From positions 1-64,000 of the IMG/VR virus record IMGVR_UViG_3300047476_000577: DNA of 64,000 nt; one strand, 5' to 3'. Position 1 is the first letter of the stretch. Every line of letters begins with the position of its first letter. Source of the stretch: a virus. Under the pieces are notes generated by a model, which was not told the origin of the DNA, made no database searches, and saw nothing but the letters and a program-made list of their open reading frames with translations. A program made the translations under genes and the position numbers. Below are positions 9,535 to 60,220 of the stretch, in pieces.

Positions 9535-9536
9535 AG

Positions 9537-32198: not shown

Positions 32199-33181
32199 AA
32201 ATACCAATTACAGAATTTGACATAGTCTTTATGAGCTATGACGAGCCAAATGCAGATGAGAATTATGCAGACTTGCTAACTAAAGCTCCTTGGGCAAAAC
32301 GCAGTCACGGAGTTAAGGGCAGCGATGCTTGCCATAAAGCAGCAGCAGCCCTAGCTGAGACTGACCGATTTATTACTATTGATGCTGACAACATCGTACG
32401 AGATGACTTCTTTAATATAGAATTAGACGATAGGCACTTCGGCGAGCTTGATGTCATCAGCTGGGCAGGCAAAAACGTAATCAACGGACTAGTATACGGC
32501 AACGGTGGTATCAAGTGCTGGCCAAAGGTAGTTGTAGAGCAAATGAAAACTCACGAAGCCGCTAGCGGTAACAATCCTAGTTCGCAAGTAGACTTTTGCT
32601 GGGACATTAACTATCATCAGATGAACAACGTCTACAGCGATGTACACAACAATGCAAGTCCGTATCAAGCGTATCGAGCAGGATTCCGCGAAGGTGTTAA
32701 GTTGTCATTGTGGGATGGAGTAACAGTTGATTCTCGACAACTTAAAAAACAAGTACACCCTAAAAATTATCAACGACTGCTAGTATGGACTAGTGTTGGC
32801 CGTGATGCTAAACACGGTCTATGGGCAATGTACGGTGCTCGGCTAGGTTGTTACTTAGCTAACTTAAAACGTGATGAGTTTAACTTTGTTGATGTGCGAG
32901 ACTTTGATTGGCACGATCGATACTGGAACGATGTAATTGCAAAACGTTTCCAGGATAATACAGATAGTGCCTGCATCAAGACAGGACACAAGTGGAACAA
33001 ACATCAACTATGGCGTGCTACAGTAGACTTAGGAAATATTCTACGTCAGGAGTTGGATCTAGAAATCGCAGACTTAGACGATATGGGCAGTAAGTTCTTT
33101 AAGGCAACTTACGTTAATCCAAATCGCTTAGGTCCTATGATTAAAGAAAGCCAAGTAATCGAAGGCGTTATCGGTGAGTAA
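32195..33181 (+). CDS. Glycosyltransferase-like protein (GT-A)
   Basis: FMSYDEPNA, ITIDADN, NGLVYGNGGIKCW, AYRAGFREGVKL. Confidence 0.7.
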   Translation: MKIPITEFDIVFMSYDEPNADENYADLLTKAPWAKRSHGVKGSDACHKAAAALAETDRFITIDADNIVRDDFFNIELDDRHFGELDVISWAGKNVINGLVYGNGGIKCWPKVVVEQMKTHEAASGNNPSSQVDFCWDINYHQMNNVYSDVHNNASPYQAYRAGFREGVKLSLWDGVTVDSRQLKKQVHPKNYQRLLVWTSVGRDAKHGLWAMYGARLGCYLANLKRDEFNFVDVRDFDWHDRYWNDVIAKRFQDNTDSACIKTGHKWNKHQLWRATVDLGNILRQELDLEIADLDDMGSKFFKATYVNPNRLGPMIKESQVIEGVIGE

Positions 33182-34592
33182 GGGAATTTACCTGGAAAGG
33201 CTAGAGAAGTTAAAAGCTAGCCTCGACGCAATTAGTCCTAGCTTTTGTGCAGCCAAGTGGAAGCAAGTTACTATACACTTGCAAAACGGCTTGACGCATA
33301 GTTGCCATCATCCATCTACGCATAAAATTCCTATTGAGGAAATTAAAGTTAACCCTAGTGCACTGCACAATACTAACTTTAAAAAAGAACAACGAAAACT
33401 AATGCTAGAAGGCAAGCGCCCTAGCGAGTGCGATTACTGCTGGCGTGTAGAAGACACACCCGGCGAGCATTACAGTGACAGGATTTACAAAAGCACAGAA
33501 CCTTGGGCATATAAGACTATTCCTGACATACTTGCAGAACCTGCAGGCTTTAATACGATACCTACGTATGTAGAAGTAAGTTTCGGAAATACCTGTAACT
33601 TTAAGTGCAGCTATTGCAGCCCCGAGTATAGTAGTAAATGGGTCGAAGACATAGAGCGCCACGGCGCAGTACAAGTCTCTGGTTCTAAATTTAACGATAT
33701 ATCTTATATAAAGTCTAAGGGCTTTATGCCTATCCCCGCTAAGGATCACAATCCTTATATAGACGCTTGGTGGCAATGGTGGCCAGAACTGTACCCTACA
33801 CTGCATACATTTAGGATAACAGGCGGCGAGCCGCTACTTAACAAGAACACATTTAAAACATTGGATTGGATCATATCGCATCCTAATCCTGAACTAGACT
33901 TGGCTATCAACAGCAACCTAGTAGTGCCCGATAATTTAATGCAAGAGTTTATCGACAAGGTCAAGTTCATTGTTGACAATAAACTTGTCAAGCGTATAAC
34001 AGTTTACACTAGTGTAGACACTGCTGGCGAGCACGCAGAGTATATCCGAACAGGTTTAGACTATAACAAATGGTTGGCTAACGTTAATCGAGTAATAAGA
34101 GAGACTGGCGCTTTTATTACTATAATGTCTACGTTCAACTTGTTGAGCTTTACTAACTATAAACAACTGTTAGCCGACATTCTTGTTATTAAGACTGATC
34201 CTACATTGATAAGAACAGGGGCAGATAAGAGTGTAAAGGCGCCACTAACAATAGATATTCCTTATTTGCGTTATCCGGAATTCCTTAGTGCATTGATTGC
34301 CACGCCCGCTATAAAGCAAAAGTTTAGCGAACTAACTGAAATGGTTACTGCTAACCTAGGACATAACGTAGTGCACGGTCATCACTTGGGATTTTACAAA
34401 CACGAAGAGCAAAAGTTTGTTCGTTTACAGCATTTGCTATCTCGCGACGATCACTATAGCCCTACAGACTATGCACGCCATCGTCGTAGCTTTGCAATGT
34501 ATGTAGACGAGATGGATCGCCGCAACGGGACAGACTTTAAAGCAGTCTTTCCTGAATACATTGATTTTTATAATTACTGCAAAACACTATAA
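33174..34592 (+). CDS. Radical SAM enzyme with N-terminal auxiliary Cys (twitch/SPASM-like) domain
   Basis: CNFKCSYC, TGGEPLL; N-terminal CAAKW...SCHH...CDYCW. Confidence 0.88.
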   Translation: MSKGIYLERLEKLKASLDAISPSFCAAKWKQVTIHLQNGLTHSCHHPSTHKIPIEEIKVNPSALHNTNFKKEQRKLMLEGKRPSECDYCWRVEDTPGEHYSDRIYKSTEPWAYKTIPDILAEPAGFNTIPTYVEVSFGNTCNFKCSYCSPEYSSKWVEDIERHGAVQVSGSKFNDISYIKSKGFMPIPAKDHNPYIDAWWQWWPELYPTLHTFRITGGEPLLNKNTFKTLDWIISHPNPELDLAINSNLVVPDNLMQEFIDKVKFIVDNKLVKRITVYTSVDTAGEHAEYIRTGLDYNKWLANVNRVIRETGAFITIMSTFNLLSFTNYKQLLADILVIKTDPTLIRTGADKSVKAPLTIDIPYLRYPEFLSALIATPAIKQKFSELTEMVTANLGHNVVHGHHLGFYKHEEQKFVRLQHLLSRDDHYSPTDYARHRRSFAMYVDEMDRRNGTDFKAVFPEYIDFYNYCKTL

Positions 34593-35290
34593 TGCTTGAC
34601 GTAATATTTTTAAGCTACAACGAACCCTTTGCAGATGCAAACTTCGAGCACTTACTACAATTCGCACCACACGCTAAACGTGTAAGCGGAGTTAAAGGCA
34701 TTTTAAATGCACACAAAGCCGCTGCTGAAAAAGCAATGACTACTTATTTTTACGTAGTCGATGCAGACGCAGTGATTGTAGATGACTTTGAATTTAACTA
34801 TACGCCGACTAAGTTTGAAATGTATCACAACGTTCCGGCAACAGAGTGTATCACTTGCTGGTCAAGTAAGAATCCTATAAATGGTTTAGTATACGGATAC
34901 GGCGGCGTTAAGTTGTTCCCTAAGCACAAACTTTTGTCAGTTACTGAATGGCGAGTTGACTTAGCTACTAGTACAGGAATGCCATTTAGACCTATTAAGC
35001 GCATCAGTAACATAACCGCCTTTAACTATGATGCAGTTACTGCCTGGCGTAGTGCTTTCCGTGAATGTGCTAAATTGGCTAGCGGCCAAATGTACGGTAA
35101 CGATGAATCGAAATATAGACTAGACATATGGACTACACAAGGTGCAGATAAGCCTAACGGAAAGTTTGCTATTGCTGGCGCACTTGCTGGCAGAGAGTTC
35201 GGACTTGCTTGTGGCAACGATTTAAATAAGTTGCAACAAATTAACGATTTTGATTGGTTGAATAAGAAATACTATGAGTCTAATATTTGA
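34592..35290 (+). CDS. Glycosyltransferase-like protein (GT-A)
   Basis: FLSYNEP, VVDADA, NGLVYGYGGVKLF, AWRSAFRECAKL. Confidence 0.7.
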   Translation: MLDVIFLSYNEPFADANFEHLLQFAPHAKRVSGVKGILNAHKAAAEKAMTTYFYVVDADAVIVDDFEFNYTPTKFEMYHNVPATECITCWSSKNPINGLVYGYGGVKLFPKHKLLSVTEWRVDLATSTGMPFRPIKRISNITAFNYDAVTAWRSAFRECAKLASGQMYGNDESKYRLDIWTTQGADKPNGKFAIAGALAGREFGLACGNDLNKLQQINDFDWLNKKYYESNI

Positions 35291-37580
35291 CGTACCTGTA
35301 GTTTCCAGTAGAGAATTTTTACAGATTAAACGGCTTAACGATGCAGATGCGGTTAAAGAAGTAGCATCCTGGAACAAATACAAAAAGTTTGTCTGGATTA
35401 AAAACCACGATGTTGATCCTGCACTGTTTGAAAATTTCGATTTTAAATTTGTTCCTACTAAGCTAGAAGCAAATAGAATACATTTGTTTGTATACGAAGA
35501 CACTCCGCATTGGTTAGCTAAACTCGTTCCTTTAAACTGGAAAGAGTCTAGCTCATACGTACTACACGTTATAAATCAAAAACGCACTATAGTCTTTAAG
35601 AATCAATTTCTCAATCACGTGCCGGATGAGGTAGCTAATTACTTGCCTGCCCCGTACGATTTAAAATATACACACGTCTGGAGATTTGATACAGCAACAT
35701 CTGACAACAAGTCAATTGACGCAATACATATCAATTACTGCGAAAATCCGCAAGGTATCAAAGTAGTAAATGTTCCAGTCAAAAACAAGTATACGCTAGA
35801 ATGGAACACAGAGTTGCCCGATGTGACGTACCCTGGCCTGCAACAAGCATTAGACTCTGTTCACTATAGTGCAGGAAAATACACTACTGTCTTTTACTTA
35901 GATGACGAGCACAATACTACAAAATACAATGTATGGATTGCTAAACTTGTTCCTAGTAATAGCGTAGGGCTCAAAGTAGGCGGAAGATTTAAACCAGCAG
36001 TGCCGTTAACAGTAGGATGCAAGCTAACATTTAACCCGTTAGTAGTAGAGCAAGAATATGCTGCAATACCTGACAACTTTGTTCCGGCAGCAGACAAAGT
36101 AAAGTATGAGCACGTTTGGTACATCGAAGATGCACTGATTAGGTACGGCACTAACACTTGGGGCAAGACGTCGGAACGCACCTGGCTAGCTAAGTACGGT
36201 CCAGAAAATCCTATAGGTACAGTGGAAGTTAAGGTGTTGCCAGCACAAGTTCTAATAACTAACCCAGACATTCCTGACTGCGAGCTCAAAGGATTTAACT
36301 TTGATGCGCTAGCCGAAACTACAGGATACGAAAAAGTATGGTACTTGGATCCTAGTTTAACTAACGGCGAAGAAGGCATATGGGCAGTAAAATACGGCCA
36401 CGGTAGTCCTATTAATATGGGTATGCTTAAACCAGAGTTCTCTGCAAGTATAGAATACAATAGCGACTATGCACTGTGGGATTGGAGCGAAGTAAAAGAA
36501 ACATTTAAGCCCTCTTACAGCGAAATGTGGTACGAGCACGTCTGGTATAAATCCAAAACGTTAAAGGTATGGGGTGTAAAAGCCAAGTTCACTAAACGTA
36601 CTAAGGGCGTTATCCATCACGGTTACATAGAACCTAAAGTTCCTGCCTGGCCAGTTGACAAAGGAGATGCTCCTTTGTATTGGAAACTAGCACAGGGGTT
36701 TAGATTTGACGAACACTGGAACTCTAAGTTTATGCCAAGCATTGGTAACGAAAAGAAAGTACACGTATTCGGCCTGCGTGATCCTCGAGGCGAGTTTATA
36801 GACTACGGTGCTTGTTACCTGTTGCCTAATCGCACCATAACAGACACTGACATATTAAAGGCAGTTAAAGTGTCTAGTAGTGGTGCACAGGAAGATGACT
36901 TTGATGTAGTATTTTTAAGCAACAATGAACCTTACGCAGATGCACACTATGCAGAGTTATTAAAGATTGTTCCTACTGCTAAACGTGTTAACGGTGTTAA
37001 AGGTATTGCGGCAGCACATATAGAAGCAGCAAGACAAGCAACTTCTAATATGGTGTTTATTGTGGACGCTGACTGTCGTGTACTAGATGCTAAAGTATTT
37101 TTACATCACCCATTATGGGCAGATAGAAATAACGTGCACGTATGGAAAAGCCGCAACCCTGTTAACGGACTGGAGTACGGATATGGCGCTATCAAATTGT
37201 TTAATAGACATCAACTACTTGGCGCAACTACTTGGACAGTTGACTTCTCTACTACGTTCAACAACAAGTTTAAAGTCATTAACAAGCTAGTATGCGAAAC
37301 AGCATTTAACTACAATGAAGAAACAACCTGGCGCAGTGCTTTCCGTGAATGTGCTAAGTTAGCAGCTAAAGTAATTCCAAATCAAGTCGACAGCGAAACA
37401 GTGCGTAGACTAGAGGTGTGGACTACGCAAGGAGCCGATAAGCCGTACGGTGAGTGGGCAATTAAAGGTGCACTTGCAGGTAAAGAATGGGCACAAAATA
37501 ATCCGGAAGAGTTACACTTGCTAAATGACTACGATTGGCTAGCAGCAAAGTTTAAGGAAGCATATGACAACAACTGCTAA
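35274..37580 (+). CDS. Repeat-domain protein with C-terminal glycosyltransferase-like domain
   Basis: About 6 Y-x-H-V-W-type repeats; C-terminal domain (FIVDADC, WRSAFRECAKL) paralogous to 34592-35290. Confidence 0.65.
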   Translation: MSLIFDVPVVSSREFLQIKRLNDADAVKEVASWNKYKKFVWIKNHDVDPALFENFDFKFVPTKLEANRIHLFVYEDTPHWLAKLVPLNWKESSSYVLHVINQKRTIVFKNQFLNHVPDEVANYLPAPYDLKYTHVWRFDTATSDNKSIDAIHINYCENPQGIKVVNVPVKNKYTLEWNTELPDVTYPGLQQALDSVHYSAGKYTTVFYLDDEHNTTKYNVWIAKLVPSNSVGLKVGGRFKPAVPLTVGCKLTFNPLVVEQEYAAIPDNFVPAADKVKYEHVWYIEDALIRYGTNTWGKTSERTWLAKYGPENPIGTVEVKVLPAQVLITNPDIPDCELKGFNFDALAETTGYEKVWYLDPSLTNGEEGIWAVKYGHGSPINMGMLKPEFSASIEYNSDYALWDWSEVKETFKPSYSEMWYEHVWYKSKTLKVWGVKAKFTKRTKGVIHHGYIEPKVPAWPVDKGDAPLYWKLAQGFRFDEHWNSKFMPSIGNEKKVHVFGLRDPRGEFIDYGACYLLPNRTITDTDILKAVKVSSSGAQEDDFDVVFLSNNEPYADAHYAELLKIVPTAKRVNGVKGIAAAHIEAARQATSNMVFIVDADCRVLDAKVFLHHPLWADRNNVHVWKSRNPVNGLEYGYGAIKLFNRHQLLGATTWTVDFSTTFNNKFKVINKLVCETAFNYNEETTWRSAFRECAKLAAKVIPNQVDSETVRRLEVWTTQGADKPYGEWAIKGALAGKEWAQNNPEELHLLNDYDWLAAKFKEAYDNNC

Positions 37581-38577
37581 AGGCTTTGCTTATGGCCTAG
37601 AAGGATATACGCTAGGTATTAAAGATGTAGGACTGTTTAATGCTTTATCCAATTATGTAAATGATCCTGCTACCCATAGCTTAATTGCTCTATTGGCTAA
37701 GTTAGGAATATACAGTAAACATCGTACCGCAACACAAAACCTTCTTACTTTAGAAGATTATAACAACATATGCTATCTAGGCAACAATAAGAACTATGAC
37801 CACGTATTCTGGGTACTTATGGCCTTAATACCAGACGCAAAAGACTTGATTTATAACCTTAAGACGTCAATTGACAGCGATAAGTTATTCGACTTTATTT
37901 TAGACTATACTGATAGCGACCACGTTAAGCAACAGCTACTTAATATAAAGAATTTTGATTCTAGCCTAGATTACTTGAAACTACTAGAAAAGTTTGATGT
38001 AATTAACTCTGCGTTTGTATACGATTTGATTAAAGCAATAGAAGCCCATCCTAGTGTTAACTGGAAGGATGCAATAAGTAGATTCCAATTAGGTAGTAAA
38101 AATTGGATAGCCACCGAAATAGGTAAACTAAATGTAGACTTGGGCAATGTCGCTCTTATGGGAGGCTGGGTAGGAACACAGGCACGTATATTATACGATG
38201 CACAAATACACTGTGATTCTATTACTAGCTACGATTTAGATGTTGATGCAAACAGTGCAGCAATGATAGTAAATGCAAGGCATAACACATTTAAGTCTGT
38301 TATGGAAGATATCTACAATGTAGACTACAGCAACTACAACACTGTCATTAACGCAATATGTGAGCACATACCTGATTTTAATTCTTGGTATAGTAGAATA
38401 AACCCTGGCACATTAGTTATACTTCAAAATAACAATATGACAGAAGCACCCGACCATATTAACTGTGTGCACTCGTTAGAAGAGTTTAGTAAACAAGTTT
38501 CCTTATCTACTAAACTCTACGAGGGTGAGTACCAATTTATGAATTGGACTCGTTATATGATAATTGGTTACAAATAA
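37564..38577 (+). CDS. Class I SAM-dependent methyltransferase-like protein
   Basis: VALMGGWVG...SYDLD...INAICEH motifs. Confidence 0.6.
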   Translation: MTTTAKGFAYGLEGYTLGIKDVGLFNALSNYVNDPATHSLIALLAKLGIYSKHRTATQNLLTLEDYNNICYLGNNKNYDHVFWVLMALIPDAKDLIYNLKTSIDSDKLFDFILDYTDSDHVKQQLLNIKNFDSSLDYLKLLEKFDVINSAFVYDLIKAIEAHPSVNWKDAISRFQLGSKNWIATEIGKLNVDLGNVALMGGWVGTQARILYDAQIHCDSITSYDLDVDANSAAMIVNARHNTFKSVMEDIYNVDYSNYNTVINAICEHIPDFNSWYSRINPGTLVILQNNNMTEAPDHINCVHSLEEFSKQVSLSTKLYEGEYQFMNWTRYMIIGYK

Positions 38578-38883
38578 TTACGCTAAGTAAATGTCTTCAG
38601 TGCAACCGAACTTTGCCAGATACTCTTCTCTGTACATACTGCGAGCTTGAACATCTTGTTCGTTTTGTAGAACATATGTACGTAATGCAACGTCATCTGC
38701 AAATTCAATTGTTTTCTTACGTTGTAGAGGTGTAACATCCTCGGTTGTTAATGAAACAAAACCAGGCGAGGATTCTAACCTAGCTTGTATCTGTTGTATT
38801 CTTAAAGCATTTTCTTCGATATCTGTAAACCAAGGTACATCTGCACTTGGACGAGTGGTAACAATTACTAATTTAACTGACAT
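38578..38883 (-). CDS. Small alpha/beta protein, paralogue of 55751-56047
   Basis: Shared pattern LV..T.(R/K)P...W...PG.VS...I.F...Y...R..Y.A..G; own late motif and AGGAG. Confidence 0.7.
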   Translation of the reverse strand: MSVKLVIVTTRPSADVPWFTDIEENALRIQQIQARLESSPGFVSLTTEDVTPLQRKKTIEFADDVALRTYVLQNEQDVQARSMYREEYLAKFGCTEDIYLA

Positions 38884-38892
38884 AAGTATCTC

Positions 38893-39573
38893 CTATGATT
38901 GTATATTTATGTTAGACACCTGATCTACTCTTCGTCTCAGATTGTAGTCTAAATCTAAATCTCTATATCTATTTAGTAAAGACCATTTTCTTATCAGAAT
39001 AGGAACACTATTTTTTGTTTCTAGTATTCCTAGCATCTTGCTAAAATTAACATACTTGCTAGCAGAATACGGCTTAATTAGCTCTTCTACTGTTACAACA
39101 TATCTAGCAGAATCAGTCTCGAAGTCCCACATTAAAGAAGAATACTGTTTGTCTTTCTTATGCTGAAGATTAACCCCTTGCGCTCCTCTGGCCATTGCAG
39201 CATTAATCGTAACTGCACTGTAAATAGACGTTATATTAATAGATTCGGCATAGGAAATCATTCCGGCCATTAATTTACTAGTAATTTCGTCCGAGTGGAT
39301 ATAGCTTACATAGTTCTTGTCTACGAAAAATAAACCAATGGTAGCAAAAGGTAGTATAGCCCAAGTGCTTATTGTAGAAAATGCTATAAGATTCCCGCTA
39401 TCGTCAAAATTTCCAAATGCAGATACACCTATGTCATTTGCCAAATACAGAGGTAAAATTTTCTTATAATGCAAATCTATATGTTTTGTTTTTTTGACTT
39501 TTAATAAAGAAGGTTGTGAATCATAAACCCTCATCATTTGTTCTAAGTCGCTGCTAATTAGTTTGCGTATCAT
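38893..39573 (-). CDS. GNAT-like acyltransferase
   Basis: MIRKLISSDLEQM start, AFGNFDDSGNLIAF and IGLFFVDKNY beta pattern. Confidence 0.5.
   Translation of the reverse strand: MIRKLISSDLEQMMRVYDSQPSLLKVKKTKHIDLHYKKILPLYLANDIGVSAFGNFDDSGNLIAFSTISTWAILPFATIGLFFVDKNYVSYIHSDEITSKLMAGMISYAESINITSIYSAVTINAAMARGAQGVNLQHKKDKQYSSLMWDFETDSARYVVTVEELIKPYSASKYVNFSKMLGILETKNSVPILIRKWSLLNRYRDLDLDYNLRRRVDQVSNINIQS
38904..38911 (-). promoter_or_regulatory. Late promoter motif CATAAATA
   Basis: Upstream of AGGAG and ATG 38883. Confidence 0.55.
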
Positions 39574-40325
39574 AGCTTTAGGGTTTGTTTTAAGCCTGGA
39601 ATAAATTTGCCGTCTACTCTAAAACTAAAAGTAGTTTCGTCTGTAGATTCCGAACCGTGATAATCCCAAGTGTTAAAGAAGCAAGCCTTTGTATCTACTA
39701 TATGCTTTTCTTTTGTATCTTCATCGTATACAAAGAATTTTTTTCTTCCTGAAGGATTGAACCATATAAAATTCTGATTCTTGTATGCTTTTTTATTTTC
39801 TAATGGAGGGAATAAGTATTCTTGTGCAGTTGCAAGATCGCTGTGTATTTGCCCGTCGACAAATGGATTAGACACAAATATAACAATTCGTCCTATACTT
39901 TCAAACGGCAAAGTCTTAACAAACTGCATAAGTTCGGGAAACAAAGAAATAGCAGCCTTATTATCTTCGCACAGTGATTGTTCAAATATGTCTTTGTATC
40001 TTCTGCTCTTAGAATGCCTTAGCTCTATATACCCGCCGGCCGCGATTACTTTATTAGTGAGTTCTGCAAACCTGTATCTTTCCTGAGCAGTAAGCTGAGT
40101 TAAAGTATTAAGGTATTCGTCTTCTATAGACTTGTCGTCACAGACATCTAAGTCATTCATATCTTTATATGTCTGATCCTTAGTCTTTGGAGGAAAATAT
40201 GCAATAGGTAGTGGACCATACTTTGCAATACCTCTAGCGACAGGAACGAATAAAGATTCTAATTGCTTAGTATCTATATACGGGCTCATATCTATAAATG
40301 GTGCGCCGTTAATACCTTCTATCAT
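39570..40325 (-). CDS. Fe(II)/2-oxoglutarate dioxygenase-like protein
   Basis: GRIVIF...IHSD (HxD)...FNTWDYHG...SFRVDG. Confidence 0.65.
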   Translation of the reverse strand: MIEGINGAPFIDMSPYIDTKQLESLFVPVARGIAKYGPLPIAYFPPKTKDQTYKDMNDLDVCDDKSIEDEYLNTLTQLTAQERYRFAELTNKVIAAGGYIELRHSKSRRYKDIFEQSLCEDNKAAISLFPELMQFVKTLPFESIGRIVIFVSNPFVDGQIHSDLATAQEYLFPPLENKKAYKNQNFIWFNPSGRKKFFVYDEDTKEKHIVDTKACFFNTWDYHGSESTDETTFSFRVDGKFIPGLKQTLKL

Positions 40326-41398
40326 TTAATATACTCGTCTAAGTTTAGTTCATTTAGGAAATTAAGATCCTGGTCTATTGCCTTATACACTTTCCTATAC
40401 CTAAATACTCCGGGTAAGCTAGGGAACTTTGTTTTATTTACATAGTAGTCATAGTCCTTGGTTACTTTGTAAATTAGTTCTTTAGCAGGACCTTTATAAC
40501 TAGCCCAAGTATTGCCTATTTTCTTATCAGGATTATTAACTGCCCATTGTTGCCAATCTTCAGTTTGCCAGAAGTGAATTAAATTATTATTCAAGTAATC
40601 CCAATCTGGTTGAAACTCTGGTTGCTTGTGGCTTAATATCCTAAATTCAACAGCTTGCCATTTCATTGCAAAGTTGTGATACCATAAGTAATCTGCCCAA
40701 GTCTTAATTTCAAAAGGACAAGTTTTTACTAACTGCTCCAGTTGATCTAAGAACCATTTAGTCTGTGTATCGTTATTGATTTTTCTATTAAAGAAAAAAT
40801 GTGCGTAGTTTTGGTAAGGCTTGTTAATAATATCTTCTGTACCGAAGTAATCGATACTAAATTTTAAAGTTAAGCTACCGAATACATTATCACTAAATTC
40901 GCCTGTAATAACTTTGTACTTTTTGTTCAAGTATTGTTCGAATCTGTTGCTGCTAGCAAGTCTAAAATGACGCTTGATAAAATTTTCGTAAAAGTGTTTT
41001 GCTTCGTCTATGCTAGCATCATTTAATATTACCAACAGGCGTTCCTTAAACTCTTTACTGCAATATTGATGTATCAAGCAAGCAACCATAGTACTGTCGA
41101 TACCGCCGCTGTACATTAACACAGGTTGGGTGTCAGGGTCTGCTAGTATTTGTCGCTCTATTTCTAGAATACGCTCAATTGATAATTCTTCAAAAGACTT
41201 TGTAAATGTTTTCCACTTGGGGAATGGATATAAGTTAGTAGTCCTATACGGCAAATCAATAGTACCTGACCTATCTACTACTGCAATACCTGTGTTAATT
41301 GCCTGGGAAAACGTCTTGTAGTTTTCTAATTGAGGATACTTGCGTATATTCTCGTCTGTATAGATATCAGACTGATGATAGTATATTAGGCTTTTCAT
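40322..41398 (-). CDS. Asparagine-synthetase-like (PP-loop) ATP pyrophosphatase lacking the glutaminase domain
   Basis: MYSGGIDST and TGEFSDNVFG (cf. AsnB SGEGADELFG). Confidence 0.75.
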   Translation of the reverse strand: MKSLIYYHQSDIYTDENIRKYPQLENYKTFSQAINTGIAVVDRSGTIDLPYRTTNLYPFPKWKTFTKSFEELSIERILEIERQILADPDTQPVLMYSGGIDSTMVACLIHQYCSKEFKERLLVILNDASIDEAKHFYENFIKRHFRLASSNRFEQYLNKKYKVITGEFSDNVFGSLTLKFSIDYFGTEDIINKPYQNYAHFFFNRKINNDTQTKWFLDQLEQLVKTCPFEIKTWADYLWYHNFAMKWQAVEFRILSHKQPEFQPDWDYLNNNLIHFWQTEDWQQWAVNNPDKKIGNTWASYKGPAKELIYKVTKDYDYYVNKTKFPSLPGVFRYRKVYKAIDQDLNFLNELNLDEYIK

Positions 41399-42024
41399 AG
41401 CAGAATGTTTAAGAATGTGTCTCGGTGAATTTCATTTAGTAGACCCTTGATAGATTCTACATCATTTAATTCTTTTAGCTTACGCAAAAACTTCATTCTA
41501 AAGAACTCTGTTTTTGTTAGCATATCTATATATAGCTGGTGCTTCAGTATAATTTGTTCCGCTGCCTGCTTTACACTACAGTTATCTAGTTCTGCATAGT
41601 CTACTACCATCGGAGCATTGTTATATGCGCTAATGTCGTAATCATTCTTTTGTAAGAATACAGCTTGCTCGTACTTTATCCTATATGTTTCTAATTGTAG
41701 AATATTAAGTTCTTCGTATCGTGCACGTGCTAGATTAATTCTATTAAGTATTTCGAAATAAATCCAACGTTTGTGGTCAACTAGGTTTACTAATGCTTGA
41801 ATAGCAGTTAGCTCCTTGTCCACTAAAGGTCTATATTCTAGTTTATCTCCTACTAGAACCCAGTCATATGGCCTTGCAGTTACTTTGTCGTAGTCTGCAT
41901 CAGCTACATTAGACGTAAAGACGTTAGAGTCTACAAAACTCTCGTTAACAAAGTAAAGGTGTTTCTTTTCTTTGTGAACCATTAGCACTCTGTTTAGTGC
42001 ATTACATAGTACGTGTACCCACAT
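41395..42024 (-). CDS. Helical partner of the AsnB-like enzyme (tail-fibre-assembly-like C-terminus)
   Basis: INLARARY...YEQA...PMVVDYAE...VKQAAEQIILK; paralogue of 57189-57824. Confidence 0.55.
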   Translation of the reverse strand: MWVHVLCNALNRVLMVHKEKKHLYFVNESFVDSNVFTSNVADADYDKVTARPYDWVLVGDKLEYRPLVDKELTAIQALVNLVDHKRWIYFEILNRINLARARYEELNILQLETYRIKYEQAVFLQKNDYDISAYNNAPMVVDYAELDNCSVKQAAEQIILKHQLYIDMLTKTEFFRMKFLRKLKELNDVESIKGLLNEIHRDTFLNILL

Positions 42025-43556
42025 TATTTTAGTATCCTATTTTTGTATTCTGTAGTTAATTTAGTCTTAGAATCAATAACATATTTTGCATCTATCGTTG
42101 CCATTGGTTTGTTAATTAGATCTTTGCTTTCCCAGCCAGTTCCTTGTTGCCATAGCATAAATGCAAACCCGCTTAATTTGTTCCTACGATTAAACACACT
42201 GCCATTAGTATATCTATCTGCAATCGCCCAGGCATCGGCAAGACGCATATCTTTATTTTTCCAATCACTCCATCTAAAGAAAGAGTTGTTGAACTTAGCA
42301 GGTGTTATTTGATAACCGTGTTCATTGGCATTTTTCTCGAACGCACTTTTCCAAAGTTTCTTTGGGTGCATATTAAACCCTAATGCCTCTACGTTAAATC
42401 CGTGTAAAGGGAAATCTTCCGCCATTACTTGGTCTAACCATTCATTGGCAGTGTCTTCCGTTTCTCCCGGAAGCCCTATCACAAATCCACTATTAGTCAT
42501 TACCTGATCTTTCCACTTGTCGTTTCTTAGCCAATGTAATAATTCTATAGTTTTGTCGGGGTGAAAGCCTTTGCCAACTGCTTTTGCTGCTTGATGATTT
42601 AAAGTTTCTATACCAAATACACAAGTTCTGAGACCGGACTCTAGCAGCAGATCTGCCATCTCCCGGTTGTCCCATATTAAATCGTGTCTTAGATATGTTA
42701 CGAACTCTATTTTAAAAGGCAGTTTAGAAAATACTTCGTTGTATAGTGTTTCTACTTTGTAGATACTATCGTTAAATGTGTCATCGCAGAACACATACTT
42801 TGTTGTTCCGAACTTCTCGTAGTTGCGGATAAATTCTTCTCTTAAAGGACCGGGGTCTCTTATATAGTCAAACTTTTTCTTTCCGTTCATAGGAAAACCG
42901 CAATAGTCGCATTTGAATATGCAACCCCTGCTAATTTCTATAGGAAGAACTTCGCCCGGTAAAATATGGTCACTGTCTTGCCATAGTGTCTGGCATTGCC
43001 TGAAATTAAAAGGACTGTCTTCCCTCCAGGCAACCTGATTCTGCCGATCATTAATTTTTATTAGTTCTATGTCAGCGGGCTTGCCTGCTAGTAGATTAGC
43101 ATACTGTACAGTAGTGTAGTCTGCAAAGCCGTGAATGTAAGTGTCTACGAGCTTTGAGCTCATATACTGACTTTTGCCGCCTCCTAACACAATTTTAATG
43201 TTAGGGTTTTTTGATTTAATATGGCTTATTAGTTCGTGACTAGTTTCGGGCGTGAACGGAAAGTCTTCAGTATAACGTAAGTCTCTTCTGTTGTTATATG
43301 TTCTGTTCTCTCCACCTATAGGCTTGTCTTTAATAGCAAATAGAGTAGAGCTAAATCCTGCGAAAAGAGTGTTAGATCCTACGTATTTGTCTACTGCTAA
43401 TTTAAGCTCATCTAGTGTCCAGTCAGATAGAAAGTCTATCATCTGGACGCTATACCCTGCATTTCTTAATTCTGTGGCTATCCTGTAGCCGCCTATCATC
43501 CTAGTATAAACTAAGCTATTAGTAAACTCTGTGAATATTACAATGTCGGCAGTCAT
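42024..43556 (-). CDS. B12-binding radical SAM enzyme (class B methyltransferase-like)
   Basis: N-terminal cobalamin-binding-type domain (IVLGG), EISRGCIFKCDYC, DDTFN, FGIET, FVIGLPGET. Confidence 0.88.
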   Translation of the reverse strand: MTADIVIFTEFTNSLVYTRMIGGYRIATELRNAGYSVQMIDFLSDWTLDELKLAVDKYVGSNTLFAGFSSTLFAIKDKPIGGENRTYNNRRDLRYTEDFPFTPETSHELISHIKSKNPNIKIVLGGGKSQYMSSKLVDTYIHGFADYTTVQYANLLAGKPADIELIKINDRQNQVAWREDSPFNFRQCQTLWQDSDHILPGEVLPIEISRGCIFKCDYCGFPMNGKKKFDYIRDPGPLREEFIRNYEKFGTTKYVFCDDTFNDSIYKVETLYNEVFSKLPFKIEFVTYLRHDLIWDNREMADLLLESGLRTCVFGIETLNHQAAKAVGKGFHPDKTIELLHWLRNDKWKDQVMTNSGFVIGLPGETEDTANEWLDQVMAEDFPLHGFNVEALGFNMHPKKLWKSAFEKNANEHGYQITPAKFNNSFFRWSDWKNKDMRLADAWAIADRYTNGSVFNRRNKLSGFAFMLWQQGTGWESKDLINKPMATIDAKYVIDSKTKLTTEYKNRILK

Positions 43557-44320
43557 TAGATCCTCTTAAGGATAGGGTAAAAAATCATACAAGGGTCAAA
43601 TTCCCACCACTTCTCTCCAAAGTTGTAGTTACCTGGATGCTTGTGGTGATTGTTGTGCCAACCTTGTCCCCACGCGAAATAGCCTAGTAGAGGAACGTTT
43701 CTGCTTTGATCATTAATTTCGTGATTCCTGTAACCGAATTCTTTCATATGGCAGAATAAGTTAATGCAAGCTTCTTGGTGGATACCAGTAATCATCGGTA
43801 GTAGGATTAAGCAAGTTGCAATCTCCCAATTGATTAGCATTGCAACAGCGATAATAGCCCATACAATTTTGTAGTAATGTTTGTGTACGTTAACCTGGAA
43901 CGGGTCGCGTAATAGATCTACGGCATACTTGAAACTAATGTCTTCTGGCTTTAGCTTAAACATCCAGCCTAAGTAAGATACCCACTTGCCGTGAATAGGA
44001 CTATGGACATCGCGTGGCTTATCTGCGTGACTATGATGGTAACCGCGGTGTAATGCTACCCAGAAAATAGGGCTACCTTGCCCAGCCATACAGCCTAGGA
44101 TAGTTAGCACTTTTCTAGTAAAGTTACTCATTTCGGGTATACCTTTGTGACTTAATACCCGATGCAATCCAATAGCACTACCTAAGCCGCTAATCAACAC
44201 CCAGCCTACGGGCCATAGCCACAGATAACTTAAATTGCCGTAGTTCCATAATACTACGAACATAATAACTGCCAGTATGTGAACTGGCCAAAACATTTTT
44301 TCAGCGTGTCCTAATTTCAT
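43556..44320 (-). CDS. Membrane fatty-acid desaturase (Delta9-type)
   Basis: His boxes HRVLSH, HRGYHH, HNNHH and transmembrane helices. Confidence 0.92.
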   Translation of the reverse strand: MKLGHAEKMFWPVHILAVIMFVVLWNYGNLSYLWLWPVGWVLISGLGSAIGLHRVLSHKGIPEMSNFTRKVLTILGCMAGQGSPIFWVALHRGYHHSHADKPRDVHSPIHGKWVSYLGWMFKLKPEDISFKYAVDLLRDPFQVNVHKHYYKIVWAIIAVAMLINWEIATCLILLPMITGIHQEACINLFCHMKEFGYRNHEINDQSRNVPLLGYFAWGQGWHNNHHKHPGNYNFGEKWWEFDPCMIFYPILKRI

Positions 44321-44341
44321 ATGTTTTCCTCTTTATTTTGA

Positions 44342-44349
44342 TATTTAGT
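44342..44349 (-). promoter_or_regulatory. Late promoter motif ACTAAATA
   Basis: Upstream of GAGGA and the desaturase ATG. Confidence 0.45.
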
Positions 44350-44983
44350 TGTTATTCTTATCTTTGTTTGCACTAGGATCTAGACGGTATTCTGGTTTTA
44401 GGAACTGCATAGTTACGATTAAGTCAACAGGCCACGGCTGGCTGTTCATAAGCCACATCCATTGGTCCTGATACGGCGGGCGTGTCCACGCAGAAATCGT
44501 ATTTAAAATAATTCTGTCGTAGCGTTCTTGTCTTTGCTTAACGTGTTTGGGCCATATACGCTTGTGAACTTCCCAGTACTTTAAAGGATACGCCATAATA
44601 TATTGATACACATAGCGTTCTTCTGCATAACTAATGGCGTGCTCCATTACTTCTACTAGACCATTCATATTCCCTGCACTTTCGCATCTTTCTGCTCTAT
44701 TAGTAAGTGCTTTCTGGATGTACCACATATTAGTGTCGGGACTGAAATATTGTGTCATACAGCTATACAGTTTATCTGTATTTTCGTCAACGTAGCCCCA
44801 CATTTTAAAATGCGGGTTATCCTCCATTAGATAGTAATTCACCATAGTATGGCTTTTTGTTATTTCTAAGTGAGGCTTATACCACGGCATCTTATCTAAG
44901 TCTACACCTGCATATGTAGTCTTATCTTGATTCATTAAATTAATTTGATCAAGATAACTAATGTCTAATTGTTTAACTATCAT
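44345..44983 (-). CDS. GNAT-like protein
   Basis: MIVKQLDISYL start, MWGYVDE..KLYS and VMEHAISYAEE pattern; resembles 38893-39573. Confidence 0.45.
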   Translation of the reverse strand: MIVKQLDISYLDQINLMNQDKTTYAGVDLDKMPWYKPHLEITKSHTMVNYYLMEDNPHFKMWGYVDENTDKLYSCMTQYFSPDTNMWYIQKALTNRAERCESAGNMNGLVEVMEHAISYAEERYVYQYIMAYPLKYWEVHKRIWPKHVKQRQERYDRIILNTISAWTRPPYQDQWMWLMNSQPWPVDLIVTMQFLKPEYRLDPSANKDKNNN

Positions 44984-45909
44984 TTTAGGGACTCTATAAA
45001 ATCTTTTACATATATTTGAAATACATTATCGTTATAAGGAATAACTTTTTGCATTTCTTGTTTGGCATTAAAGTTTAATAACTTCAATGTTTCGTAACCG
45101 TGGTACTTAGGCCTGGGTTTCAATAAGAAATGTTGCCCGTATACTTCTTTTTTTATTGCCTGCACACTACGCTTTCCTACTAATTGATTAGTGACTAGTT
45201 TAGTTACTAATGGGTCTATAGCATAACTTAACATTATTTCCGGAGTATAACTAAAGAATTCACTAATTACTGGCCGTTGATTGATGTGTGCATACTTGGG
45301 AACGCTTAAATCGTTGTTTTCTCTAACATAGTAAAACCAACGATTATTTCTTTCCTTCGGATTTTTGAGGTATGCGGCATAGTCGAACTTTTGTTCAAAA
45401 AATACTTCACCGGTTCCTAATACAGGAATAGCATCGTCGATTTTATTCATCAGCCAGATTAATTGAATCTGTGCAATCTGGCTGCTTTGATATTTTATAC
45501 CAATTGGCAAGTATTCTTTGCTTTTATAAAACTCTACAATGTCAATCTCGTGTACTCTATATTGTACATTATAATACTCGCAAAAGTCTATAGCGTATTT
45601 GATATCGTGATCGTTGTATCCGTCTTTGAATCTTAAGATATCTGCTACAAAAGGTACACCTGCTAGTAAAAAACTTTGTGCCAATACTTCGCTATCGACA
45701 CCGCCGCTGAAAAATATACTGAATTTTTCATTAGGGTAAGCATCTTTTATTTTACTAACAACATCTAGGCACTCCGATTTAAAGTCAGCAGGGCGCCTTG
45801 TCACTTTATCCCAGTGCATTTTAAAAATATCCGAGTCGTGTGTTCTATTAGAAAATGGAACACCATTGTATGTCCAATGAAAATGATTATTTTGTGTTAG
45901 TGTTACCAT
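44980..45909 (-). CDS. PP-loop (AsnB-like) ATP pyrophosphatase
   Basis: FFSGGVDSE, LGTGE, terminal RPKYHGYE. Confidence 0.7.
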   Translation of the reverse strand: MVTLTQNNHFHWTYNGVPFSNRTHDSDIFKMHWDKVTRRPADFKSECLDVVSKIKDAYPNEKFSIFFSGGVDSEVLAQSFLLAGVPFVADILRFKDGYNDHDIKYAIDFCEYYNVQYRVHEIDIVEFYKSKEYLPIGIKYQSSQIAQIQLIWLMNKIDDAIPVLGTGEVFFEQKFDYAAYLKNPKERNNRWFYYVRENNDLSVPKYAHINQRPVISEFFSYTPEIMLSYAIDPLVTKLVTNQLVGKRSVQAIKKEVYGQHFLLKPRPKYHGYETLKLLNFNAKQEMQKVIPYNDNVFQIYVKDFIESLK

Positions 45910-46756
45910 AATTAAATTCTGGGTCTAGCTGGGTATCTATAGACACTCGAACGAACCTTCTATCTCCCACGCTATCGGAAAATATTTCTCCCTCGCCTTT
46001 GCGGTGCATAGTGGCCCAATTATCGAAAATAATTAAATCTCCTATTTCCCAGTTGTGTGAGTACTGATATTTATTGCCCAGGTCTTTAACAACATTTTTT
46101 AAAATTTCGTTATCTAAATATTTTTTCTCTGTTCCGTGCTGTTCATACCAGGAGCGAATCCACCCGTTGTCCTGACTAACAGCATTTAATCTTAGAAACT
46201 TTTCTTTAGTATATGGATGTTCTTCTATAGCAGGTAAATCTTTTATATTAGTTCCTACTCGTTGCCAGCTTTGGTATGTGAAATATCTACGACTGTATTT
46301 TTCTTTTTCTTCTTGACTGAGGTCAGAATAAGCTCTTGCCATATTTGAAACATCAGTGGTCATACCTTTAAATTTAGAAGGGAGATCGATGCAGTATAGC
46401 ATTCTACTAGGATATCTTGCAAAGCCGGGTTCATTGGCAATATCTACGTGCCAAGGAATTCCTGAAAATAATCTTGCGTAGCTTTTATTAGTATAGTCTG
46501 TATAAGATCTTCCTTGATTATCAAATCTTGCATCTTCTTTAATTGACTTATAATCTTTATACGCCCACGGCTTACCTAGCTTTTCCCCTAGATCTATTAT
46601 TTTTTTAGGACTAAGGTTGTGCCATCCTTTAAACACTAATACTTTATGGGTGAATAGCAGATGTCGTAAATCACTATTATCGACTGCCATTACTTCGTCG
46701 TATGATAGGTTTATTTTAATTCCTATAAAATCAGTGAGGGAAGTGTAGGGTATCAT
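45887..46756 (-). CDS. TauD/TfdA-family Fe/2OG dioxygenase
   Basis: WHVD...HNWEIGDLIIFDNWATMHR...RRFVR. Confidence 0.85.
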   Translation of the reverse strand: MIPYTSLTDFIGIKINLSYDEVMAVDNSDLRHLLFTHKVLVFKGWHNLSPKKIIDLGEKLGKPWAYKDYKSIKEDARFDNQGRSYTDYTNKSYARLFSGIPWHVDIANEPGFARYPSRMLYCIDLPSKFKGMTTDVSNMARAYSDLSQEEKEKYSRRYFTYQSWQRVGTNIKDLPAIEEHPYTKEKFLRLNAVSQDNGWIRSWYEQHGTEKKYLDNEILKNVVKDLGNKYQYSHNWEIGDLIIFDNWATMHRKGEGEIFSDSVGDRRFVRVSIDTQLDPEFNYGNTNTK

Positions 46757-47330
46757 TTCGTACGTCCATTATAATATGTATGCGATCACTGTCTCCTTTA
46801 TTAGATGCCCAGTGCATAGTTTTATTGTCAAACACCCATAATTCTCCTTGCTCGAAGCGGACAGTTTCTGTGTCTTCTTTACTACCACAACTAAAGCTAA
46901 CTCCGTTGTTAGTTTTAAGTACGATATGATATCTATCGTGCAAATCAAAGTATTTTCCTGGATCAATGTGAGGATATATGTTGCCGCCTGGGACCATTTT
47001 AGCAATATAGCATCTTCCTAATTTAGATCCCGGCAGCGCCAATAATAAGGCACTATTAATTAATTTTCTACAAGCAGGAAGTCTGTACATTGCCTCTGCG
47101 TCTACTGCTTCTAGCATTTTATCTGCTAGTTCTTTCGCTCCTCGGGCATCAGATATAGAATCGCTTTTATGATTCTTGTCGTGAATTCTTAGGTGAATAG
47201 ATTGCCCTTCCCTGAGAGGAGGGCTTTGCTCTGGCCTTGCTGTATGCGGCCCAAACAAGTGATAATTTTGCATAACCTCTTCTAAGGCTTCTGTTACATC
47301 AATGTTACCTATAAATTTAAAATATTTCAT
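46731..47330 (-). CDS. Aspartyl/asparaginyl beta-hydroxylase-family dioxygenase
   Basis: PGGNIYPHID, RYHIVL, GELWVFDNKTMH..N...DRIHIIMD. Confidence 0.85.
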   Translation of the reverse strand: MKYFKFIGNIDVTEALEEVMQNYHLFGPHTARPEQSPPLREGQSIHLRIHDKNHKSDSISDARGAKELADKMLEAVDAEAMYRLPACRKLINSALLLALPGSKLGRCYIAKMVPGGNIYPHIDPGKYFDLHDRYHIVLKTNNGVSFSCGSKEDTETVRFEQGELWVFDNKTMHWASNKGDSDRIHIIMDVRNDTLHFPH

Positions 47331-47902
47331 ATCGTGTCAAATAGTAAGTGTACCCGGTCATCCTGGCTAGCGTTCATTGCAGTGTGCATCGCAGTTGAAA
47401 CTAAACTGTAGAGTTTACCTTCAGTCTCCATAGTATATAACCCGTGTTCAGTTACAATGAAGCATCTAGGATTTGTAATAATGGGAACGTGATAACGTAT
47501 TAGATCATCGTCCTTGTGCCAGCTGTAGCAAGTTTTAGATCTAAGCATCATTAGCCTAATTCTGCCAATCGGTCTTGTGCTAAATTCTCTAACTTTGTTA
47601 ATTACAAATTCAAAATATGTATTCTTTACAGCAGGGTGCAAGTGGGTAAATTTTTCTTTTTCTTTACCCTCTTGATATACACGATTAAGTCTGTTGTCGA
47701 GTCCTGGCTTGATAATACTGCCTATACCATCGTATATTTGATCAGCAGGATCATCATACTCGCCTGTATGCACAAGGCTTAATTGATTGCTGTGCGGATG
47801 CCAGGGGTACTTTTTAAGCAAAAACCCTAGTTCCATTTTTAATTTCAGCTTGTCAAAAACTATAGGATAGGATTCGACATCTATTACGTTATCATTAAAC
47901 AT
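47327..47902 (-). CDS. Aspartyl/asparaginyl beta-hydroxylase-family dioxygenase
   Basis: RIRLM...YSWHKD, RYHVPIITN, HTAMN...DRVHLLFD. Confidence 0.82.
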   Translation of the reverse strand: MFNDNVIDVESYPIVFDKLKLKMELGFLLKKYPWHPHSNQLSLVHTGEYDDPADQIYDGIGSIIKPGLDNRLNRVYQEGKEKEKFTHLHPAVKNTYFEFVINKVREFSTRPIGRIRLMMLRSKTCYSWHKDDDLIRYHVPIITNPRCFIVTEHGLYTMETEGKLYSLVSTAMHTAMNASQDDRVHLLFDTI

Positions 47903-47907
47903 ACACT

Positions 47908-47915
47908 TATTTATA
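47908..47915 (-). promoter_or_regulatory. Late promoter TATAAATA heading enzyme cluster 1
   Basis: Exact consensus, 5 nt before ATG 47902. Confidence 0.7.
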
Positions 47916-47936: not shown

Positions 47937-48488
47937 TTAATCTAGAGCAAAAGTTATTGTCCATTGTAGTGTATGTTGAATCATTTCCGGTTCGTCGTTT
48001 ATTGTAGCGTTTTTATACCACTTGCTCATCGGGTGGTGCTCACTTTTCATTGCACGTTTGAATATAGTAAGCAAACCTCGATTGTACTCGTTAACAGTAA
48101 TCATTGCGCGAGTGGCACCATTTGCTTTAGCCCATTCTAGCTGCTTAGGTAACAAGTATTCGTGTAACAGGTATTGTGTTCTGAACTCTTTCAGCGTCCA
48201 AGTTCTAACTAAAAGAATTGCAGTGGAATCTTTTATGTATACGCCACTAGCAGATATAGTCTGCATATCGTTGCATAGTACAAAGTATTGCCCAGTTGGC
48301 GGGACAAGTCGCTGCTCGTTATAAAGCAAAAAAAGTACACTAGCGGGATTATTTTCCCAGTCAGTGTACTTCATATTAGAAGCAGCAGGATGTTTAGGCT
48401 CTGCTGCTTCTATGGTTTTACAGAATCCAGAAACTAGCCTATAGTGATCTGGATCTTCTTTGTTAATTGCAATTACGCTATAGGTCAT
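47937..48488 (-). CDS. GNAT-family acetyltransferase-like protein
   Basis: [12 protein letters not shown]...LEWAKANG...ITVNEYN. Confidence 0.65.
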
Positions 48489-55702: not shown

Positions 55703-55710
55703 TATAAATA
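55703..55710 (+). promoter_or_regulatory. Late promoter TATAAATA
   Basis: Exact consensus; leader hairpin agcataa/ttatgct; AGGAG; ATG 55751. Confidence 0.72.
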
Positions 55711-55750
55711 CTGCAAGAGCATAAAAAGATTATGCTACAAGGAGAATAAT

Positions 55751-56066: not shown

Positions 56067-56093
56067 AAAAAGGACTCCCAGGAGTCCTTTTTT
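56067..56093. terminator. Bidirectional intrinsic terminator
   Basis: aaaaaggactcc-ca-ggagtcctttttt between convergent genes. Confidence 0.85.
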
Positions 56094-60197: not shown

Positions 60198-60220
60198 ATA
60201 TACGTCCTCTATTATGTACG

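Follow-up and report, generated by a model that had tools for sequence, protein, structure and literature searches.

We examined a 64,000-nucleotide stretch of viral DNA (the window), the first 64 kb of the 104-kb IMG/VR virus record IMGVR_UViG_3300047476_000577, for the make-up, conservation and candidate product of a twelve-gene operon rich in PP-loop, GNAT-like, desaturase, oxygenase and radical SAM enzymes. The record was judged to be 29% complete, which implies a genome of about 350 kb, and the baseplate wedge protein of the phage shares 37-43% identity with those of jumbo myophages such as Atu_ph07, GAP32 and PA5oct. An earlier note, made from the letters of this DNA, had described a co-oriented, mostly overlapping set of twelve genes under an exact late promoter, and all 12 open reading frames (ORFs) were found on the minus strand, filling 38578-47902, where adjacent genes share 1-26 nt or, at the remaining junctions, are separated by 9 and 24 nt. 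Numbered in the direction of transcription, and with core and accessory members as defined below, the features of the operon are as follows:

47908..47915, minus strand: TATAAATA, a T4-type late-promoter-like box that ends 5 nt before the ATG of g01
47327..47902, minus strand: g01, AspH-type iron/2-oxoglutarate (Fe/2OG) oxygenase, 191 residues (Pfam Asp_Arg_Hydrox, E 2.9e-9)
46731..47330, minus strand: g02, second AspH-type oxygenase, 199 residues, accessory (Pfam Asp_Arg_Hydrox, E 6.5e-18)
45887..46756, minus strand: g03, TauD/TfdA-family Fe/2OG oxygenase, 289 residues, accessory (Pfam TauD, E 4.3e-27)
44980..45909, minus strand: g04, PP-loop ATP pyrophosphatase "A", 309 residues, core (SGGVDS motif)
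44345..44983, minus strand: g05, GNAT-fold protein (predicted), 212 residues, core, always directly after g04
43556..44320, minus strand: g06, membrane di-iron desaturase of the stearoyl-CoA (delta-9) type, 254 residues, core (Pfam FA_desaturase)
42024..43556, minus strand: g07, probable B12-type (class B) radical SAM enzyme, 510 residues, accessory (Radical_SAM, E 2.1e-15, 57.8 bits)
41395..42024, minus strand: g08, upstream partner of g09, 209 residues, core, no family found, overlapping the g09 start by 4 nt
40322..41398, minus strand: g09, AsnB-class synthetase domain (SGGIDS motif and predicted fold; PP-loop "B"), 358 residues, core
39570..40325, minus strand: g10, possible Fe/2OG oxygenase, 251 residues (HxD..H..R motif)
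38893..39573, minus strand: g11, remote relative of the g05 GNAT family, 226 residues (hhalign 93%, E 3.3e-7, 177 columns)
38904..38910, minus strand: ATAAATA box within the end of g11, 20 nt upstream of g12 and followed by AGGAG
38578..38883, minus strand: g12, small protein, 101 residues, conserved over its full length

The family assignments of the earlier note were confirmed for the two AspH oxygenases, the TauD oxygenase, the PP-loop protein, the GNAT fold, the desaturase, the radical SAM enzyme (B12-type by its best profile matches), the AsnB-like protein and a second, remote GNAT-like protein. Its impression, gained by eye, that the region is AT-rich was likewise upheld by a GC check: the cluster has 36.8% GC compared with 40.9% in the remaining window, and lower GC was found in just 2 of 110 windows of the same size. 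The AT-richness is thus real and modest. A megablast search with the whole cluster against 50,697 deposited phages gave no match.

Conservation of a five-gene core among phages

Co-occurrence was counted in 32 loci that carry a g09-type gene with at least 5 kb of flanking sequence on each side, and genes were scored when found within 8 kb. Rather than being scattered independently among relatives, the genes were found to travel together in both related and distant phages. Among the closest relatives (L004-L010), four loci (L004, L005, L007 and L010) keep the gene order g01-g09, g11, g12 together with the convergent neighbours at 25-78% identity, and no g10 homologue was found in these four. 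L009, a nearer relative of the same lineage, has flanking genes 47-84% identical to those of the window and a module reduced to g04-g05-g06-g08-g09 plus a third PP-loop gene. This gene content defines a five-gene core of g04, g05, g06, g08 and g09, with the oxygenases, the radical SAM enzyme, g10, g11 and g12 as accessory members. The AsnB-like gene is accompanied by g04, g05 and g06 in 27/32 loci each and, as detected by BLAST, by g08 in 17/32; accessory genes range from g01 (24/32) and g10 (12/32) to g02 (6/32) and g03 and g07 (4/32 each). The core set is retained across loci that are only 30-35% identical, in both orientations. This pattern argues that the operon is a conserved enzyme pathway and not a chance collection of genes.

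Relatives of g09 were detected on at least 313 viral contigs and at 138 places in bacterial genomes. The PP-loop pair was not found in any of the 50,697 deposited phage records, and tblastn with g09 gave no match there. As a further observation on the gene content of the module, about 30 loci from one large uncultured-phage clade (e.g., L052 11838-12503) carry a ThyX gene inside the operon, where it separates the desaturase gene from the g10 homologue.

PP-loop enzymes, their partner and the small protein

The AsnB-like gene g09 was examined by sequence, profile and structure comparison. Its SGGIDS motif is invariant in 29 homologues, and its AlphaFold2 model reached a predicted local distance difference test (pLDDT) score of 93.9. 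When this model was aligned with VIA-align, the 12 best entries (Z 10.7-12.8) were all TsnB9, beta-lactam synthetase, asparagine synthetase or carbapenam synthetase, while GMP synthetase, NAD synthetase, LarE and TilS reached Z 8.5 at most. The alignments begin at target residues ~130-190 and leave no room for an N-terminal glutaminase-like domain in 358 residues; a search for longer fused forms of g09 found none. From this ranking and the short length, g09 is predicted to belong to the AsnB class as a synthetase domain that lacks the glutaminase domain. The PP-loop motif and the complete fold of the synthetase domain, over 200-265 aligned residues, are common to g09 and non-canonical members of the class (beta-lactam synthetase, CarA and the hydroxyamidotransferase TsnB9), and by analogy g09 should adenylate a carboxylate and form an amide. 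It differs from these enzymes in its length, in the absent N-terminal glutaminase-like domain, in an identity of 9-15%, and in being always accompanied by a small upstream partner. The g09 protein of the window had no Pfam hit and hence no Asn_synthase (PF00733) match; PF00733 is carried by one homologue, P0016.

The second PP-loop protein, g04, resembles g09 in the PP-loop region only, and its family profile matched NAD synthetase (3fiu) at 5.5e-7 in the N-terminal PP-loop region alone. Neither g04 nor g09 matched any NCBIfam model. Searches of the PDB by sequence and profile with g04, g09, the g05 family, g10 and three items from neighbouring genes described below (the glycosyltransferase-like domain of p768, p337 and u183) returned PP-loop-region matches or nothing.

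The partner g08 gave no match in Pfam or PHROG. In 31 loci from phages and 23 from bacteria, the gene immediately upstream of the g09 homologue is a g08 homologue. In the ESM Atlas, a helical family (HI1402_helical) is annotated on 13% of the members of the corresponding cluster, which we treat as a lead only. The small protein g12 has 22 invariant columns spread over its full length in 5 homologues and no variable tail, and is therefore not precursor-peptide-like. No precursor-peptide gene with a variable core was found in the operon, which has no spare intergenic space.

GNAT-like proteins

The AlphaFold2 model of g05 (pLDDT 84.5) gave 279 Foldseek matches in the PDB at E ≤ 1e-3, the best at 6.4e-7, and all among the matches listed were GNAT acetyltransferases. 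VIA-align placed it at Z 15.4 with a root mean square deviation of 2.7 over 155 residues, and its nearest structures are small N-acetyltransferases that include RimI, Naa10, Naa60 and EctA. On the strength of this model, g05 is predicted to have a GNAT fold, and two previously unannotated proteins (g05 and g09) thereby gain confident fold predictions. No Pfam match was found for g05; the invariant residues of its family are W87, E121 and Y155 only, and a clear Q/RxxGxG/A motif was not seen. In the ESM Atlas, 20% of the members of a resembling cluster are annotated as GNAT family, again a lead only. The gene that occupies the g05 slot in distant loci was identified as a g05 homologue by hhalign (98.4%). 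The more remote g11 had a weak match to Autoind_synth (2.7e-4, under the cut-off). Since g11 directly follows g09 in L004-L010, each PP-loop gene has a GNAT-like follower.

The desaturase and its link to acyl carrier proteins

Assignment of g06 to the FA_desaturase family was well above threshold (E 2.2e-12, 47.7 bits, cut-off 29.7), and alignment with human SCD1 (4zyo; E 7.5e-15) paired the HX4H, HXXHH and HXXHH boxes. Two hydrophobic stretches of 28-29 residues are present. The match to the NCBIfam DesA equivalog was 56.9 bits at a cut-off of 400. Identity to g06 is 76-78% in L004-L010 and 54% in a Duganella locus described below; among deposited phages, matches were restricted to pelagiphage Mosig and two contigs labelled Acinetobacter phage MD-2021a, with no cyanophage among them.

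Genes for acyl carrier protein (ACP; PP-binding) were found in 3/39 module-bearing records, and two of these lie within the module. The one in L037 immediately precedes PP-loop A, and the one in L024 is placed between g10 and an AspH gene. In addition, at ~80500-81591 of the record under study (minus strand; L165 8500-9592), 16 kb past the window, a second SCD-type desaturase overlaps a canonical ACP gene. This desaturase is 32% identical to g06 with its His boxes intact, and the overlapping ACP has a DSL motif. Neither ketosynthase nor YcaO was found in 40 module-bearing phage records.

Two side observations concern these ACP-bearing regions. The L037 locus (2608-11056) is a compact variant operon in the order unknown protein, ACP, PP-loop A, GNAT-like protein, desaturase, unknown protein, AspH, radical SAM, unknown protein, Pfam GNAT, partner and PP-loop B, and its radical SAM protein carries an N-terminal SPASM-type domain. 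Downstream of the second desaturase-ACP pair, on the same strand and past an intervening plus-strand ORF, lies a gene for a 684-residue protein with a subtilisin-like N-terminal part.

Oxygenases and the radical SAM enzyme

Both AspH-type proteins exceed the broader Pfam Asp_Arg_Hydrox threshold, and in the g01 family alignment H128, D130 and H172 are invariant. The earlier note had drawn analogies to the lipid hydroxylases LpxO and OlsC and to OlsB-type N-acyltransferases, and these were not supported: g02 scored 36.9 bits against the LpxO NCBIfam model (cut-off 500), g01 did not match that model, and the GNAT model is closest to RimI, Naa10 and EctA. The TauD-family protein g03 had a weak match to the ScoE model (2.3e-12).

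The radical SAM protein g07 carries the CX3CX2C motif, and its B12-binding domain scored 21.9 bits in Pfam, below the cut-off of 32.1. Its best NCBIfam matches were to PhpK-family and lipid-biosynthesis B12/radical SAM models (residues 103-377), all far under their cut-offs. No match to g07 was found by tblastn against the 50,697 deposited phages or in a single-protein scan of viral contigs.

The claim of a fourth Fe/2OG oxygenase, g10, was sustained in part. Its motif is invariant in 12 homologues (H160, D162, H222 and R235, i.e., an HxD..H triad plus a 2OG-binding Arg), while the call received no backing from Pfam, PDB profile search or hhalign. Compared with the AspH family by hhalign, g10 had a probability of 1%, with a top alignment that pairs the H-x-D and distal His of both families. 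It is therefore a possible oxygenase and a weaker family call than the others, resting on the invariant motif only.

Occurrence of the module in bacteria

Versions of the module were also located in bacteria, where the g08-g09 pair is kept by members of the Candidate Phyla Radiation (CPR) and by Bdellovibrionota, often with a g04-like gene. The Duganella sacchari locus carries a g04-like gene, the desaturase, a Pfam GNAT, a g09-like PP-loop B gene and a cupin, and two ORFs with no family match occupy the g05 and g08 positions. A Pseudobdellovibrionaceae contig has the order g10, desaturase, g10, u183 and PP-loop B (g09), and in 16 Bacteroidota loci the g08-g09 pair occurs with a cupin and a 128-residue protein. 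At about 11 CPR loci the pair lies near genes for YcaO, a nitroreductase, a phosphoribosyltransferase (PRTase)-propeller protein and a sodium:solute symporter. The wider CPR neighbourhood (L086-L109 and L116) comprises YcaO, nitroreductase, a PRTase-beta-propeller fusion, a TPR protein, g08-g09, the symporter and the g04-like PP-loop gene; its recurrence in varying gene order suggests a functional link.

A late-type promoter motif at the head of the operon

The exact late-promoter box proposed in the earlier note was located upstream of g01, and TATAAATA was found to occur only three times in the window. Its ATAAATA core is depleted, with 11 copies compared with 24 expected, and all 100 shuffles gave at least 11. 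Eight of the 11 copies lie at most 50 nt upstream of the start of a same-strand ORF of at least 90 residues (3.6% for random positions), and a ninth precedes a 76-residue ORF. Examples among the 11 sites are 12691, 13979, 26684, 27345, 38904, 47908, 51234, 55704 and 60221; copies head g01, precede g12 and head a second PP-loop unit (60221). This depletion, together with placement just upstream of gene starts, makes it credible that ATAAATA behaves as a real promoter element. The boxes at 13979 and 47908 both end exactly 5 nt from an ATG; this spacing leaves no leader, and the messages would be leaderless or nearly so. The box upstream of g01 is not conserved in L004-L010, and read-through into the operon from upstream co-oriented genes could also occur. 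Elsewhere in the window, in the region 55703-56047, a 98-residue plus-strand ORF (55751-56047) is preceded by both an exact TATAAATA and a ribosome site (AAGGAG); given these signals, the 93-residue minus-strand ORF that overlaps it (55735-56016) is probably not a gene.

Genes flanking the operon

Genes on both sides of the operon were compared across the same 32 loci. Those relevant here are:

47937..48488, minus strand: u183, family not assigned, just outside the operon; in most other loci it lies between the AspH gene and PP-loop A
35274..38577, plus strand: p768 (GT-A-like domain at the C terminus, containing a DxD motif) and p337 (methyltransferase-like domain at the C terminus), convergent neighbours

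A u183 gene was found within 8 kb of the g09-type gene in 21/32 loci, a frequency from which we take it to belong to the module. As a GNAT candidate, u183 had a best PDB match of only E 0.23, and comparison with g05, g11 and two bona fide GNATs detected no relatedness. Just upstream of the operon in the window are ThyA and DHFR genes; in L004-L010 the slots of u183, ThyA and DHFR are occupied by other genes.

On the other side, the p768 domain occurs within 8 kb in 25/32 loci and p337 in 27/32. The GT-A-like (glycosyltransferase) and methyltransferase-like folds were judged by eye, and neither the p768 domain nor p337 had PDB or Pfam matches. The N-terminal 530 residues of p768 (window 35274-36860, plus strand) contain about four repeats, each with a conserved Trp-containing motif; this extension is limited to the closest relatives, and elsewhere there are three separate genes with one GT-A-like domain each. 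Further radical SAM genes lie at 33174-34592 of the window (plus strand) and at G000 94325-94789 of the record, and one of these two sits in the convergent transferase-like operon.

Candidate products of the pathway

The confirmed families match the chemistry that the earlier note had proposed, namely hydroxylation, desaturation, C-methylation, acyl transfer and amide formation. The reading that we favour, though tentatively, is that the product is a tailored, lipid-like fatty-acyl (N-acyl) amide, which makes use of all core members. Starting from the folds, families, motifs and gene-set conservation described above, we infer the substrates and the order of steps as follows. The AsnB-class enzyme g09 would activate a carboxylate as an acyl-adenylate and close the amide bond, and g04 may do likewise; the GNAT proteins would move an acyl group onto an amine; and the desaturase would act on a fatty acyl chain embedded in the membrane, creating a double bond. 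Hydroxyl and methyl groups would be contributed, in the phage studied here, by accessory enzymes, namely the AspH, TauD and g10 oxygenases and the B12-type radical SAM protein. The fatty-acyl amide would be made late in infection from host precursors, with the host envelope, the particle or release as possible destinations.

The acyl or lipid moiety that the earlier note had envisaged drew some support from the membrane desaturase with its intact di-iron site, from the ACP genes within the module of L037 and L024, and from the second desaturase-ACP pair. Weak family-level pointers to lipid-active relatives come from the LpxO, ScoE, lipid-biosynthesis B12/radical SAM and DesA models. Several results weigh on the other side: (i) the lipid-specific NCBIfam matches are all far below their cut-offs; (ii) the structures nearest to the g05 model are acetyltransferases of small molecules and of protein N termini and not long-chain acyltransferases; (iii) an ACP gene lies within the module in just 2/39 records, and ketosynthase was found in 0/40; (iv) the tail and glycosyltransferase-like neighbours in 25-27/32 loci and the late-type motif fit decoration of the particle at least equally well; and (v) the CPR g08-g09 pair lies near YcaO and nitroreductase, a peptide-modification signature.

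The last two points lead to an alternative that we consider possible but rather unlikely, in which the target is a peptide or a protein of the phage particle. It would be decorated by hydroxylation, acylation, C-methylation and either amidation of side chains or formation of isopeptide bonds, much as in modification systems for ribosomally synthesized and post-translationally modified peptides (RiPPs) or in those of the collagen-like kind. The late-type motif stands at the operon head, the module converges with the tail and fibre operon (a linkage retained in 25-27/32 loci), proteins are classic AspH substrates, and RimI, Naa10 and Naa60 are among the structures nearest g05. Lasso peptides, moreover, are cyclised by AsnB homologues. 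The roughly 11 CPR loci with YcaO and nitroreductase point the same way, as does the prediction of Iyer et al. 2010 (PMC2938197) that beta-hydroxylase operons modify tail-collar and collagen-like proteins; the same authors predicted peptide or metabolite roles for phage dioxygenase arrays. Set against this, the core includes a membrane fatty-acid desaturase, which has no known peptide substrate, and the same core occurs in the Duganella locus, where no phage structural genes were seen in the annotated part. The operon also has no space for a precursor-peptide ORF, g12 is conserved throughout, and YcaO was found in 0/40 phage records.

A further alternative, which we regard as doubtful, is that the operon and its glycosyltransferase-like and methyltransferase-like neighbours tailor a sugar or glycolipid (host lipopolysaccharide or capsule, or a particle glycan), with the PP-loop enzymes amidating GNAT-acetylated sugar substituents. 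The neighbours co-occur in 25-27/32 loci, in most of which they share a strand with the majority of the module genes, and the phage Mosig island is comparable and includes sugar aminotransferase and carbamoyltransferase genes; host-recognition clusters of pelagimyophages and cyanomyophages, which join tail fibres, glycosyltransferases and radical SAM genes, have been read as serving O-chain modification (PMC7029224). However, the glycosyltransferase and methyltransferase folds were supported by no search, the operon has no nucleotide-sugar enzymes, no sugar-amidotransferase NCBIfam model matched either PP-loop protein, and the Duganella and Pseudobdellovibrionaceae versions have no match to p337 or p768.

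Modification of nucleotides or DNA, i.e., base hypermodification from a thymidylate-synthase product, is very improbable. The location of ThyX within the module in one clade, and of ThyA and DHFR just upstream in the window, would fit such a role, and in other systems bases are substrates of PP-loop enzymes and of 2OG oxygenases. Yet a membrane desaturase and ACP fit poorly, ThyA beside DHFR is expected for ordinary dTMP synthesis, and the structural grouping of g09 is with enzymes that amidate carboxylates instead of with TilS, QueC or ThiI. ThyA is absent from its slot in L004-L010, and this lack of conserved adjacency in the closest relatives makes hypermodification unlikely. That there is no single pathway, and that independent auxiliary genes are held together by phage synteny only, is equally remote: accessory genes are gained and lost between relatives and hypervariable islands are known in T4-like phages (PMC7029224), but the core set is kept at 30-35% identity, in both orientations and in bacteria of different phyla, and start and stop codons overlap.

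Returning to the fatty-acyl amide, a broader form of this proposal, which we put forward as improbable, is that a complete pathway to a new class of amide-linked, unsaturated, hydroxylated or methylated lipids is encoded by a widespread clade of giant phages, all uncultured, and by some bacteria of predatory or epibiotic habit. The lipids would be made late in infection and be built into the particle or released to act on other cells. If true, this would be a phage-borne natural-product pathway with a new PP-loop/GNAT ligation logic. A new lipid or lipidated particle protein as the product would represent a new phage route to alter membranes or the phage's own surface, and would also provide a function for two large uncharacterised PP-loop families. 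Islands of tailoring enzymes next to tail genes have been on record in aquatic T4-like phages for fifteen years, never with an assigned product, and one such island is now reduced to a defined five-gene core present in dozens of sampled phage contigs and a few bacteria.

Comparison with known systems

The enzyme-family mix of the operon recalls that of thienamycin/carbapenem clusters, which combine an AsnB-like beta-lactam synthetase, B12 radical SAM methylases, 2OG oxygenases and a GNAT; the g06 desaturase and the second PP-loop enzyme have no counterpart there, and the likeness is a resemblance only. Other phages also encode SCD/DesC-type membrane desaturases whose His boxes are intact. Examples are the delta-9 desaturases (vFAD/desC) of cyanophages, which have been investigated as individual genes (PMC5776448), and the stearoyl-CoA desaturase of freshwater pelagimyophages (PMC7029224). 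Those were described as stand-alone auxiliary genes, whereas g06 is a constant part of a multi-enzyme module that also includes two PP-loop enzymes and GNATs. The hypervariable islands of pelagimyophages and cyanomyophages, which contain fibres, glycosyltransferases, radical SAM and AspH genes (host recognition cluster/hyperplastic region; PMC7029224), and the dioxygenase array of Syn9 and the beta-hydroxylase operons (PMC2938197) are likewise tailoring islands beside T4-like tail fibres, and share with the present locus AspH-type and other 2OG oxygenases, radical SAM enzymes, acetyltransferases and glycosyltransferases. In phage Mosig, too, genes for AspH, desaturase, TauD, methylase, GNAT and AspH proteins lie next to those for the fibres. 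The published islands were described as non-syntenic and hypervariable, while the present module has a defined conserved core. A literature search for the PP-loop/GNAT/desaturase core found no description, with most subscription journals outside its coverage.

A second tailoring unit in the window

A second tailoring unit with its own ATAAATA box (60221) occupies 56092-60227 of the window on the minus strand:

58725-60197, minus strand: protein with two methyltransferase domains
57821-58741, minus strand: alpha/beta hydrolase
57189-57845, minus strand: g08-like partner
56092-57210, minus strand: g09 paralogue

These four genes also occur together in L064 and L027, and the set of methyltransferase, partner and PP-loop genes was found in Bdellovibrionota as well.

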